A DNA stretch of 64,000 bases, from positions 64,001-128,000 of the forward strand of contig CAWHBU010000001.1 in the NCBI GenBank assembly GCA_963827685.1. Reading direction: 5' to 3'. Shown piece after piece: positions 36,664-39,510 of the stretch (position 1 is the stretch's first letter; the number at the start of each line of letters is the position of its first letter). The stretch comes from an uncultured delta proteobacterium. GTDB lineage: Bacteria > Desulfobacterota > BSN033 > UBA1163. The notes beneath the pieces are model-generated. The model saw nothing but the letters and a program-made list of their open reading frames with translations, did no database searches and had not been told where the DNA came from. A program made the position numbers and the translations under genes.

Positions 36664-39510
36664 TCAACTGTTCCTAAGCCGCTTTTGAGCAAAGGCATCA
36701 ATGTCTGTTTCCTGAGATCTAAGGAATTCTAGGAAACTCAACCCATTGATCCGACAGGTCTCGCATAAACTTAGAAGTATAAGATAGTCACGAATACCGC
36801 TTTCAGTTGAATTGCCACGAATATCTCGGCGCAGATAAACAAACGCTTTAACCGCATGTTCCGCGTTATTGTTATTCCAAGGAATGTTATCGTAATCGAG
36901 AAATGTAAATAGCTGCCTTTGGTTCTTCAGGAGTCGCACCTTGCATTTGGTAGCAGCATCCGTACGGAAATCTTGTTGTAAAAGTGACTTAAAAAATCGG
37001 TTCACATCTTTTTTGTGTTTTCGTAGGAAGCGTGCCTTTAAGCCGAACCTATCCACTGTTTCTATCATCGGCTTAACGAGGGCTGCAAAGTCAGCGACAA
37101 GGGATTTCATTTCATTATTAAAAGGTTCTTTGAGAAGATCGTCATTCATGTCACGAATCAGATGAATCAAACACTTCTGCTGAGGGCAGTTCAGTGAATC
37201 ATAGACTGAGTAGAAATCGGAAACCAAAACTCCCTTGAATTCCTTTAAGAGTTCAAGAACCCAACTCCCTTCACGAGTGGGGGTATATAAATACACAACC
37301 TCTTTCAAATTGGTGAACGCCCAAACATACCCTATTTGTCCCTTTACGTTCACTTCCGTTTCATCAGCGTGAATTAAATCGCCGCTAATGATCTTTTCCA
37401 TAAGTTTCTCGGTGGCAGGTTTACAATATAGGGCTACAATGGACTTGAATCTATTTGGGACGGCCCGAGAGAAACTGAGACCCAGTATTTCGTTGAAAAA
37501 TGTGGCAACTCTCTGTTGGGGTACTCGAAGAGCGATATTGAGATAGATGGTCATCGCCAGAAGATTTTTACCAAACTTCTCACTACTGTTCCAGGGTCGC
37601 TCTGAGCTCCAAAAGACTGTGTTACAAGCGGAGCATCGATACCTACAATACAAGTATTTTGTAACCCATCTCTTAATCCCTGACTTGTTATATTTTAAAT
37701 CGAGAATTGTCTTCGTATAGGCCTGGTGCTTATAGATCTTTGTTTTTCCACAAGTGGGACACTGGGAGGGGGCTGGAAAAGAAATCACTTTATTAGGGCG
37801 GAGTTTTATTCTTCTTGTTTTTGTTACTCTTCGCTCAGCTGTTTTAGGGGAGTTATCGGACTTTAGAAGTAAACGCTCTCTCTGGTAATCCCAGTATGCA
37901 GCACTATTTATCTCTTCAAGTTCGGGGAAGACAAACTGGATTTTCCGATAACGAAAGGGAAATGCACTAGGCAAAGAATCGATGTGAACGAAATCATTAG
38001 CAAATGTGCCACGGACTCCCGAATTGCGGGTACTTAAATTGATTAAACAATCCATTACTCGGCAAATTGCTTCACAGTCCTCTGAATTGTAAGTGATAAG
38101 TTTTTGCTTGAAGACACCCTCACGTGAATTATACCAGCTTTCTCGCCACAGGATAGCTTGAATCCCGCTTACATTTGGCTCAGACCACTCGAAACCGAGG
38201 AATCTCGAAATATCTTTAAGTCCATTGGAATAACAGGGGAAGTAAATCTGCCCGAATATCACTGATAACAAGTTCACAGCAGACTTGATGACATTGGCTG
38301 CTACAGAGCCTTCTGGAGGTTTACCATAACGCTTCGTCATATCCCTAAGAAAAGTGGTTTCAAAGCTACCGTAATGAATGAGAACAGGGTTTTCAACGGA
38401 TGCCAAAATATCCAAGAACTGTTGCCAGATGACTTCCTCGTCATTAACACTGTCTGCCCAAAGACTGTATTGATCGGTTGAGGAGTTGTTTCTGATTCGA
38501 AGGCCAATCAAGTAGTAAAAACCCCGATCAGGGAGTGCTTCTACGTCGAAACAGACAGGCGTACCATCAATTTTAAGTTCAGGGGTTCCCGCTACATGTA
38601 TTTTGTTCTCCCGAATCGCCAATGCCTTTAGTGAATGGTGGTATTTTTCCCTTTTTCCTCTAAGCCGCTTTGGTCGCCGACGGGGACGAAAGGTATAGGA
38701 AAGCTGGTTGACAGTGAAGATCCCCTTCTTATGATTCATCTCGCGTTCCTTTGCTGTCATGCCTTGTAACAAGCTTAGATCATCCTTCTCGACGGCCTTT
38801 TGCCGGCACTCGGCTTTGAACTCACACTCGGAACAATTTCGGTTCAGTACGAGGTCCGGTGGAGAAGGGTTCTCCAGTAAAGTGACAATCTTTTCAACTC
38901 GCTTCCGAACCTTACCCAATAGAACGATGGTCTTCACTTTCAATACGCTGTAATCATCTCCTCGGATGATTTTGGCATAAGCTACGTTATGCCCGAGCGC
39001 TTTCGACAGGGTGAGTGCATCAAATCCCAAAACTAGCCTATCGGCTTGGGTGATCTTGTACCTCGAAATAAAGCGGATGGGAATATATTGGGTGGCTCTT
39101 CTTTCCCGTTTGGAATCAATCCGTTCAACGGCCTGAAGATGAGCGGCCAACACAACTCTAGCGCTCGGGGAAGCAGACGGATATTCCTGAGAAGCTATTT
39201 TCATATGTGAACGATTCAACAGCTTCTGGAAACTAGAACTGTTGACATCACGGGGATCAGATTCAACCACCAATCTCGCAGCCAAACACCACCTGGGCAT
39301 CTTCAAATCTCCACGGGCAAATGGGAAAGAGCATTCCTTTTGTGGTGATCCTTCAAACAAGCGTTTCACTCCCGCACTATAATAGGAATTGTTTCGATCT
39401 TTGACCCACTCGGCATACTCGTTCCCTTCGCCTTTTTTGCCAAGAGAAATGTGCCAGCATTTAGTATTGCATTCGAGGTAGGCTTGGAATATCTGGGATG
39501 TGATTTTCAT
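36664..39510 (-). CDS. TM0106/Cas4-like + RNase H-like exonuclease + IS66-type DDE transposase fusion
   Basis: N-terminal ECNTKC and CSECEFKAEC cysteine staple; FDVE...HYGSFE...YNSEDC exonuclease; CPTC/CSAC zinc finger; HADET, VSDFY, QKCLIHL, NNNAEHAVK IS66 motifs. Confidence 0.88.
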   Translation of the reverse strand: MKITSQIFQAYLECNTKCWHISLGKKGEGNEYAEWVKDRNNSYYSAGVKRLFEGSPQKECSFPFARGDLKMPRWCLAARLVVESDPRDVNSSSFQKLLNRSHMKIASQEYPSASPSARVVLAAHLQAVERIDSKRERRATQYIPIRFISRYKITQADRLVLGFDALTLSKALGHNVAYAKIIRGDDYSVLKVKTIVLLGKVRKRVEKIVTLLENPSPPDLVLNRNCSECEFKAECRQKAVEKDDLSLLQGMTAKEREMNHKKGIFTVNQLSYTFRPRRRPKRLRGKREKYHHSLKALAIRENKIHVAGTPELKIDGTPVCFDVEALPDRGFYYLIGLRIRNNSSTDQYSLWADSVNDEEVIWQQFLDILASVENPVLIHYGSFETTFLRDMTKRYGKPPEGSVAANVIKSAVNLLSVIFGQIYFPCYSNGLKDISRFLGFEWSEPNVSGIQAILWRESWYNSREGVFKQKLITYNSEDCEAICRVMDCLINLSTRNSGVRGTFANDFVHIDSLPSAFPFRYRKIQFVFPELEEINSAAYWDYQRERLLLKSDNSPKTAERRVTKTRRIKLRPNKVISFPAPSQCPTCGKTKIYKHQAYTKTILDLKYNKSGIKRWVTKYLYCRYRCSACNTVFWSSERPWNSSEKFGKNLLAMTIYLNIALRVPQQRVATFFNEILGLSFSRAVPNRFKSIVALYCKPATEKLMEKIISGDLIHADETEVNVKGQIGYVWAFTNLKEVVYLYTPTREGSWVLELLKEFKGVLVSDFYSVYDSLNCPQQKCLIHLIRDMNDDLLKEPFNNEMKSLVADFAALVKPMIETVDRFGLKARFLRKHKKDVNRFFKSLLQQDFRTDAATKCKVRLLKNQRQLFTFLDYDNIPWNNNNAEHAVKAFVYLRRDIRGNSTESGIRDYLILLSLCETCRINGLSFLEFLRSQETDIDAFAQKRLRNS

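Follow-up and report, generated by a model that had tools for sequence, protein, structure and literature searches.

A TM0106-type exonuclease module fused to an IS66-family transposase: a probable single-gene transposon variant in an uncultured delta proteobacterium

The gene described here lies in a stretch of 64,000 nucleotides (nt) from an uncultured delta proteobacterium (positions 64,001 to 128,000 of contig CAWHBU010000001.1, assembly GCA_963827685.1). The whole stretch is called the window, and positions refer to it unless a genome or locus is named. At 36664-39510, on the minus strand, the window contains one uninterrupted open reading frame (ORF) of 948 codons with an ATG start, whose product joins a Cas4-like domain, an exonuclease-like domain, a zinc ribbon and the DDE domain of an IS66-family transposase in a single polypeptide. 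We propose that this gene is probably a single-gene variant of the IS66-family transposons, carrying a built-in exonuclease module. The arguments for reading it as a selfish, self-mobilising element are the conserved IS66 catalytic domain, its autonomy, the unrelated flanks of its copies, the occurrence of decayed copies and of paralogues, its patchy distribution and its mixing across phyla. An initial annotation, made from the sequence alone, had hesitated between a distinct class of transposon and a domesticated protein, and the evidence leans to a mobile element. The intact ORF of 948 residues was already reported in that annotation, and all of the motifs that it quoted are found in the translation. 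The layout of the gene is as follows.

36664..39510, minus strand: fusion of a TM0106-type module with an IS66-family transposase (P0001); intact 948-residue ORF with domain matches
38776..39510, minus strand: Cas4-fold domain, residues 1-245; Foldseek, profile alignment to Cas4, comparison with a paralogue, invariant columns
38563..38775, minus strand: basic linker, residues 246-316 (KGIFTVxQLSYTFRPRRRPKR...KALAIRE); invariant columns, low model confidence (pLDDT)
38041..38562, minus strand: RNase_H_2 (PF13482) 3'-5' exonuclease-like domain, residues 317-490; Pfam, invariant residues
37609..37770, minus strand: zinc ribbon CPxC...CxxC, residues 581-634; conserved cysteines, weak Zn_ribbon_ISL3 match
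36796..37575, minus strand: IS66 DDE core, residues 646-905; Pfam, NCBIfam, invariant residues, Foldseek

Domains and conserved residues

The N-terminal half of the protein is the known TM0106/COG2251 module, because it matches the NCBIfam model TIGR03491 (TM0106 family RecB-like nuclease) above the cut-off, with 199.3 bits against 97.45 over residues 138-487. The alignment spans model positions 107-460 of 462, the first 106 positions having diverged in the fusion protein. Proteins of this type consist of a Cas4-like DUF83 domain and PF13482, and are predicted in the accessible part of the source to be 3'-5' exonucleases (PMC3985635). The Cas4-like and exonuclease domains named in the initial annotation are both present; they are not separate acquisitions, since they form one known module that has been captured whole. 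Homologues of the fusion are annotated in the databases as 'IS66 family transposase' or as 'predicted RecB family nuclease'.

AlphaFold was used to model residues 1-308 (32 sequences; predicted local distance difference test, pLDDT, 73.6). The best Foldseek match to this model is the type I-C Cas4 structure 8d3l (E 8.8e-9, template modelling (TM) score 0.68 on the target), followed by SSO0001, AdnAB, Dna2 and ACE1. The cysteines typical of an iron-sulphur (Fe-S) site, C14 and C226-x2-C229-x5-C235 (NCSECEFKAEC), are present and are invariant in all eight sequences compared. Together the model and the cysteines identify a predicted Cas4 fold with a four-cysteine Fe-S site, which may bind a cluster. 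The Cas4 sequence model TIGR00372 stays below its cut-off (13.5 bits against 65), and PADLOC gives only weak Cas4 matches, the best with E 3e-4. There are no cas genes among the nine ORFs flanking the fusion gene in the window, and a Cas3-like domain occurs in 2 of 150 neighbouring ORFs across the loci of the family.

The initial annotation had also observed that the Cas4-like cysteines are kept and the PD-(D/E)XK residues replaced, and alignments to Cas4 and to a paralogue, together with the invariant columns, agree. HLQAVE is found at residues 124-129 and IPIRFI at 143-148. In the profile alignment to Cas4, P-I-R-F-x of the fusion family lies opposite the catalytic P-V-E-Y-K, and PIRFI lies opposite VDIK of a stand-alone TM0106 paralogue, so the catalytic D...(D/E)xK pattern is absent from the fusion protein. 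The paralogue is a protein of 474 residues encoded in the same genome (G000:C3:506711-508063; L237:1471-2892, minus strand), and it retains the motif II aspartate, D-I-K of motif III and QxxxY (PD...D-I-K...QxxxY). All seven fusion proteins compared with it have lost (D/E)xK, and those of the main clade among the seven have lost the motif II aspartate as well. The loss of these residues is real, and the nuclease site of the Cas4-like domain is, to judge from the alignments, predicted to be dead.

Between the Cas4-like and exonuclease domains is a linker of about 70 residues, which is nearly invariant and strongly basic. It is predicted to be flexible, with a pLDDT below 50 both in the model just described and in the full-length model, which is itself moderate (pLDDT 63.9, predicted TM score 0.34), with the domains on flexible linkers. 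The linker matches no Pfam family, and a helix-hairpin-helix reading of it, lacking Pfam support, was dropped. The domain that follows is matched by RNase_H_2 at residues 319-489 (E 2.6e-22), with the exonuclease motifs FDVE at 321-324 and YNSED at 474-478. D322, E324, E384, Y474, N475 and D478 are invariant, both in the alignment of 30 homologues on which the conservation counts are based (and in which the C-terminal tails are unalignable) and in the comparison of eight sequences, which includes the stand-alone paralogue. These residues suggest a DEDDy-type exonuclease that is seemingly active.

The C-terminal part matches DDE_Tnp_IS66 (PF03050) at residues 646-905 (E 4.7e-34; 118.5 bits against a cut-off of 23.1), and the NCBIfam IS66 transposase equivalog NF033517 at residues 570-931 (194.8 bits against 180; model positions 11-381 of 387). 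A Foldseek search with the whole model matches its DDE part to the ISCth4 transposase 6xg8 (E 2.3e-4). All 30 homologues have D716 (in HADET), D765 (SDFY) and E884 (NNNAEH), and from this invariance and the motifs familiar from IS66 we take them to be the DDE triad. A motif C780-x2-H783-x2-R786 is invariant in the same alignment. In the zinc ribbon C587, C626 and C629 are invariant, and C584 is kept in at least 90% of the 30 homologues; Pfam support for this domain is weak (Zn_ribbon_ISL3, E 7.5e-4, under its cut-off). The exonuclease, the zinc finger and the full DDE core of the initial annotation are in this way borne out by domain models and invariant residues.

Every domain of the protein is under purifying selection. 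For nine pairs the ratio of nonsynonymous to synonymous substitution rates (dN/dS) is 0.21-0.44 overall, 0.12-0.37 in the DDE part, 0.22-0.53 in the Cas4-like domain and 0.15-0.62 in the exonuclease. The sole value above 1 is that of the short linker in the pair formed by the window and a second copy, L090, where there are very few synonymous changes.

Distribution, copies and neighbours

The fusion is far from unique to this assembly, a possibility that the initial annotation had raised. The best 120 matches in a collection of 5.8 billion proteins are all 580-1050 residues long, and 118 of them contain both PF03050 and PF13482. A scan of one genome per prokaryotic species gave at least 553 confirmed stretches, and a further 350 were confirmed in metagenome contigs; the fusion architecture is also found in 10 of the 30 nearest ESM-Atlas clusters. 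The matches listed come from Verrucomicrobiota, Acidobacteriota, Pseudomonadota, Planctomycetota, Nitrospirota, Thermodesulfobacteriota, KSB1, Hydrogenedentota and Bacteroidota, and those listed for species representatives include two isolates, Methylobacter svalbardensis LS7T4A and Sulfuriferula multivorans TTN. Two complete cyanobacterial plasmids carry versions that are 36% identical. Fusion proteins of different phyla retain about 50% identity.

The genome that contains the window was assembled from a metagenome and has 8% contamination, and it also encodes a separate TM0106 protein. The ORF might therefore be suspected of being a chimera, in which a TM0106 gene and the gene of an IS66 transposase were joined during assembly or gene calling. 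This is refuted by the recurrence of the fusion: the same unbroken architecture is present in hundreds of independent assemblies, in isolates and in the two complete plasmids, and independent public contigs span the junctions. We regard such an artefact as exceedingly improbable.

The family is at the same time sparse. It was found in 3 of 401 sampled Acidobacteriota genomes, and among 41 relatives in five, all of one genus (counting the genome of the window, 5 of the 15 in that genus). A FastTree phylogeny of 73 proteins, 67 of them with a phylum label, requires 23 changes of phylum, compared with a minimum of 8 and a mean of 36.8 for shuffled labels, and therefore shows clustering together with much mixing.

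In the genome of the window the fusion gene is present as a single copy and holds the sole IS66 domain, and TnpB_IS66 (PF05717) has no match in the whole 5.23-Mb assembly. Other genomes have 1-4 fusion copies, which are 70-90% identical and mosaic. Decay is seen in genome G002, where a DNA copy of 92% identity at a different locus contains at least 8 stops, and truncated copies occur in G011, G431 and G045. Some relatives within the genus hold paralogues of 34-47% identity. In G014 two paralogues (34-38%) lie 12 kb apart, and at locus L081 there is a second, partial copy of 66% identity 3.5 kb downstream.

No partner gene is conserved, and the fusion gene stands alone. The commonest neighbour family occurs at 8 of 152 loci, and consists of the fusion family itself or of other transposases; the first 150 of the 213 nearest flanking ORFs fall into 124 Pfam families, headed by Phage_integrase (4) and PIN (4). 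The IS66 accessory genes tnpA and tnpB, which the initial annotation had not found, are indeed absent: the flanks in the window are DUF3047 and ParB_N genes, and no conserved neighbour appears at the 152 loci. This is true and yet not unusual in itself, because their absence is normal in the single-ORF ISBst12 group of IS66, according to the accessible text of PMC12898284.

Taken as a whole the fusion is a widespread, low-copy and apparently mobile family, held in the databases and seemingly unstudied. Our literature search found no paper that discusses it; ISfinder/TnPedia, subscription journals and supplements were outside the search, so an earlier description is possible. The sole literature trace found of this pairing is a table row, 'transposase IS66, pfam03050, COG2251', listed four times for Ca. 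Solibacter usitatus Ellin6076 in Table 1 of PMC3469429.

Limits of the unit and the search for ends

The extent of the unit was estimated from 45 pairs of loci (27 distinct boundary sets) that are 84-98.5% identical and in which both members are bordered at either end by 120 nt or more of unrelated sequence. Ahead of the ATG the homology continues for a median of 50 nt (quartiles 14 and 70). At the 3' end, measured from the last conserved codon, the median distance is 26 nt to the limit of homology and 69 nt to the stop codon. This pattern, together with the unalignable C-terminal tails, suggests a moving unit of about 2.9 kb whose right limit is inside the ORF. For the gene in the window, homology limits define two stretches.

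36517..39767, minus strand: stretch 94% identical to the second copy L090, which has other flanks
36683..39576, minus strand: smallest conserved unit, common to the 78%-identical copy L091

Both limits of the stretch shared with L090 are blurred by short dispersed repeats; a public Logan contig (X3, record 22, 3228 nt) covers 36517-39731. The stretch shared with L091 takes in 66 nt ahead of the ATG and falls about 19 nt short of the end of the stop codon.

A number of results weigh against an element that moves by itself, and most of them concern its ends. Inverted repeats were sought in six differently designed scans, and in no scan were any found above chance. The scan of 500 nt on either side gave two strong inverted pairs only, both of them palindromes resembling repetitive extragenic palindromic (REP) sequences; in three window scans the median z was about 0.2 or below, with z above 3 at 3 of 85, 5 of 89 and 1 of 78 loci; and a narrow-window test of 14-mers gave 9.54 matches against 9.52 and 9.27 in controls. 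A motif upstream of the gene, GTA[AG], has no inverted partner across the family loci. No target-site duplication (TSD) was found, and there is no clean empty site, those in G010 and G012 being rearranged. G010 retains the DUF3047 fragment described below and about 85 nt homologous to window 39779-39684, the rest being rearranged, and G012 differs from G014 by an indel of 4.5 kb, which includes an HU-like gene and a DUF6868 gene as well and whose junctions are not clean. Other results concern the spread of the family. It is rare on plasmids (3 of 72,556 records); a set of 50,697 phage records yielded no match, and IMG/VR no confirmed one. No genome was seen to hold near-identical copies in different flanks, and in a 9.3-Mb genome that contains over 30 ordinary IS66 copies the fusion is represented by just 2 divergent copies. 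Carriage by phages, with no phage record containing a family member, was rejected.

The initial annotation had seen no terminal inverted repeats (TIRs), and none are found around the gene or emerge from the 78-93 family loci; homologues with the ordinary TIRs and accessory genes of IS66, which it had allowed for, were likewise not found. It had expected the flanks of homologues to reveal the element. They do so in part, being unrelated and delimiting a unit the size of the ORF, but ends, duplications and clean empty sites did not appear.

Several candidates for ends were considered and set aside. A possible TIR in the window, at -67 (starting TAAGCGAATC) and across the stop codon, agrees at 11 of 14 positions, which is within chance: 10 of 85 loci reach this score, and 8 of 85 in controls. 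Its apparent covariation with L091 rests on two sequences and was discounted. The conserved coding end (AFAES...) was tried as the right inverted repeat, with a median z of -0.05 and 1 of 78 loci (L113) over z 2. Long inverted repeats at L010 and L041 are copies of a REP-like palindrome, so not element ends. A 10-nt direct repeat (39699-39690 and 36514-36505, minus strand), adjacent to two of the homology limits, was rejected as a target-site duplication, because its right copy lies inside the dispersed repeat at 36473-36546 and the motif recurs near the other copies of that repeat. Among the contigs of four runs, a joint 39985>36447 that might have indicated a circle comes from a contig that is 86% identical and belongs to another organism. 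Distances to contig ends, used as a proxy for the ends of insertion sequences (IS), show no sharp peak.

The copy at locus L113, from a soil metagenome, has its 3' end duplicated in inverted orientation (118 nt, 82%) between -169 and -53 relative to its start codon (L113:3113-3229 and 6108-6223), which is read as a rearrangement. A GC-rich palindromic repeat of about 25-30 nt flanks some members (L010, L095 and L041). By our own reading it is also present in frame in variable loops of the proteins P0024, P0037 and P0061, giving stretches such as SLLTSAAT and SSRGNEAQT, these ORFs tolerating the insertion.

The upstream motif GTA[AG], often within (G/C)GTAGC, starts 10-24 nt before the ATG at 32 of 93 loci; in control windows it does so at 6 and 9 of 93. 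This enrichment is overstated, since the loci include related and hence non-independent sequences. The motif could mark the left terminus, be a part of the translation start region, or result from shared ancestry. Its resemblance to the GTAA/GTGA start of IS66 ends speaks for the idea that the gene is an ordinary IS66 or ISBst12 element with short ends that escaped notice, its N-terminal module being a passenger with no role in transposition. The TIRs of single-ORF IS66 elements can be as short as 14 bp and imperfect, by the accessible text of PMC12898284, and such ends are below the resolution of our scans. On the other hand the motif has no inverted partner, the module is translationally fused in every member seen, and the invariant exonuclease residues and Fe-S cysteines are under purifying selection, where a useless passenger would decay. 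We consider an ordinary element of this kind quite unlikely.

Because copies are few and no ends were found, a different alternative stays alive, which is that the gene is a domesticated IS66 transposase, now a host enzyme for DNA processing, DNA capture or anti-phage defence that spreads horizontally in the manner of defence genes. It has 1-4 divergent copies per genome; no TIR or TSD was seen at the 78-93 loci; all of its domains are conserved over long distances, as far as the identity of about 50% between phyla; its spread is patchy (the 3 of 401 Acidobacteriota genomes and 5 of 41 relatives above); some neighbours are integrases, PIN toxins or helicases; and the window gene itself lies beside a ParB_N/PAPS-reductase pair. 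What such a host function would lead one to expect nearby is however not found: the 124 families among 150 neighbours reveal no conserved partner and no signature of a defence island, and the PADLOC matches are the weak ones to Cas4 (E 3e-4 at best). Decayed and truncated copies are known, several divergent paralogues can share a genome and are at times adjacent, and the stretch found in changing flanks is essentially just the ORF, a pattern that self-mobility explains better than carriage on an island. Domestication is to our mind a minor possibility, though one to be taken seriously.

It is also conceivable, but unlikely, that the gene represents a new kind of DDE element or enzyme, in which a Cas4-derived Fe-S sensor of DNA ends is combined with a 3'-5' exonuclease. 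Such an element would have no inverted-repeat ends, its termini might be recognised or created by resection, and its right end would be inside the coding sequence; alternatively, the protein would be a stand-alone integrase for DNA capture or defence.

The immediate surroundings of the gene in the window include the following features.

35581..36405, plus strand: complete DUF3047 gene (274 residues), a flanking host gene; Pfam
39769..39951, plus strand: 3' fragment (60 codons) of a second DUF3047 gene; Pfam
36473..36546, no strand assigned: short dispersed repeat (about 60-75 nt) located downstream of the ORF; another 3-6 copies per genome, seen in five genomes of the genus

A direct repeat of 218 nt (84%), at 36224-36441 and 39770-39987, brackets the fusion gene, and was considered and rejected as a pair of att-like sites. 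It belongs to the history of the host and is outside the element, because congeners without the fusion gene have the DUF3047 fragment. The arrangement of gene and fragment, with other DNA between them, is also found in G010 and G007. A dispersed repeat at 39703-39767 occurs as well in G010 and at a contig end in G012. A sequence of about 70 nt upstream of the DUF3047 gene (35489-35562) has dozens of copies in each genome of the genus and a summed contig depth of 7,000-8,600 in two metagenome runs, and has the look of a REP sequence or a miniature inverted-repeat transposable element (MITE).

Opposite the DUF3047 gene, the other flank of the fusion gene is a ParB_N gene at 40164-40991. It begins a block (40164-43330) that continues with two ORFs without a clear family and ends with a PAPS-reductase/PP-loop gene (42257-43330), and that is 86-88% conserved in G012 and G004. 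The pairing of ParB_N with PAPS reductase presumably recalls DNA-modification modules of the IbrB/IbrA type or Dnd/Ssp-like ones. Further away, 29892-34127 is an ORF of 1411 residues with two BcrAD/BadFG-type ATPase domains and a DUF2229 CoA-enzyme-activase domain.

Proposed mechanism and relation to known systems

On the reading that we prefer, that of a self-mobilising single-gene transposon, the transposase of a compact ISBst12-like element, without tnpA and tnpB, would have captured a complete TM0106/COG2251 module at its N-terminus. The zinc ribbon and the IS66 DDE domain (D716, D765, E884) would recognise the ends, cleave them and carry out strand transfer. The Cas4-fold domain, having lost its nuclease activity and kept the cysteines of a putative [4Fe-4S] cluster, may grip DNA ends or single strands together with the basic linker, while the DEDDy exonuclease would trim 3' ends or flaps, either on the donor or on intermediates of transposition. 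With such trimming in the same protein, the element would possess its own end-processing activity in place of accessory proteins. While the exonuclease site and the Fe-S cysteines are strictly kept, the nuclease site of Cas4 is gone from every fusion, and this suggests a division of labour. The mobile unit would barely exceed the ORF, and its right limit seemingly falls within the last codons, so that the C-terminal tail would be read from flanking DNA. The element would persist at low copy number and spread mainly by horizontal transfer.

Canonical IS66 elements have ends of the form GTAA...TTAC and make an 8-bp target duplication. Neither the ends nor the duplication is seen at the fusion gene. 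A likeness to canonical IS66/IS679 (tnpA, tnpB, tnpC) lies in the C-terminal 380 residues of the fusion, which match the IS66 equivalog. The canonical elements have accessory genes, whereas the fusion ORF lacks them and its genome lacks TnpB_IS66.

A close comparison is with the ISBst12 group, which resembles the fusion in having a single ORF, an IS66 DDE domain, no tnpA or tnpB, and ends that are short or hard to see. Its member ISDge4 of Deinococcus geothermalis is described in the accessible text of PMC12898284 as an active copy-and-paste element with a single transposase ORF of 449 residues, 14-bp imperfect TIRs and an 8-bp duplication. The fusion protein has 948 residues, of which about 560 at the N-terminus are the TM0106 module. 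No TIRs or duplication of the kind that the same text gives for ISDge4 were found at the fusion loci, although imperfect TIRs of 14 bp or less are below the reach of our scans.

The stand-alone TM0106 paralogue of 474 residues shares the Fe-S cysteines and the exonuclease residues with the fusion. It keeps the PD-(D/E)XK site and has no transposase domain, and the fusion is the reverse on both counts. A further likeness is to Cas4-Cas1 fusions and DEDDh-Cas2, which also join a nuclease-type module to an integrase-type enzyme, the Cas4 fold being common to both. CRISPR adaptation, however, uses Cas1, whereas the fusion uses a DDE transposase, its catalytic Cas4 residues are gone, and no cas genes or arrays adjoin it. 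A functional analogy with CRISPR adaptation is speculation, and it is weakened because the Cas4 active site appears dead.

IS66 is among the least understood of the large IS families: how its members transpose, and what the accessory proteins contribute, is unsettled. In the family described here a nuclease module has been welded to the transposase in hundreds of lineages, with one catalytic site lost and the other strictly kept. This amounts to a natural experiment on which end-processing a DDE transposase requires. It also gives the uncharacterised TM0106/COG2251 proteins a functional context that can be tested, and provides a compact single-protein system of about 2.9 kb for coupled exonuclease and strand-transfer chemistry, in which the stand-alone TM0106 paralogue with its intact PD-(D/E)XK site is a natural control for the fused, inactivated version. 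Should the protein prove to use ends without inverted repeats, or to be domesticated, it would bear on transposon biology and on the origin of integrase-nuclease partnerships such as that of CRISPR adaptation.

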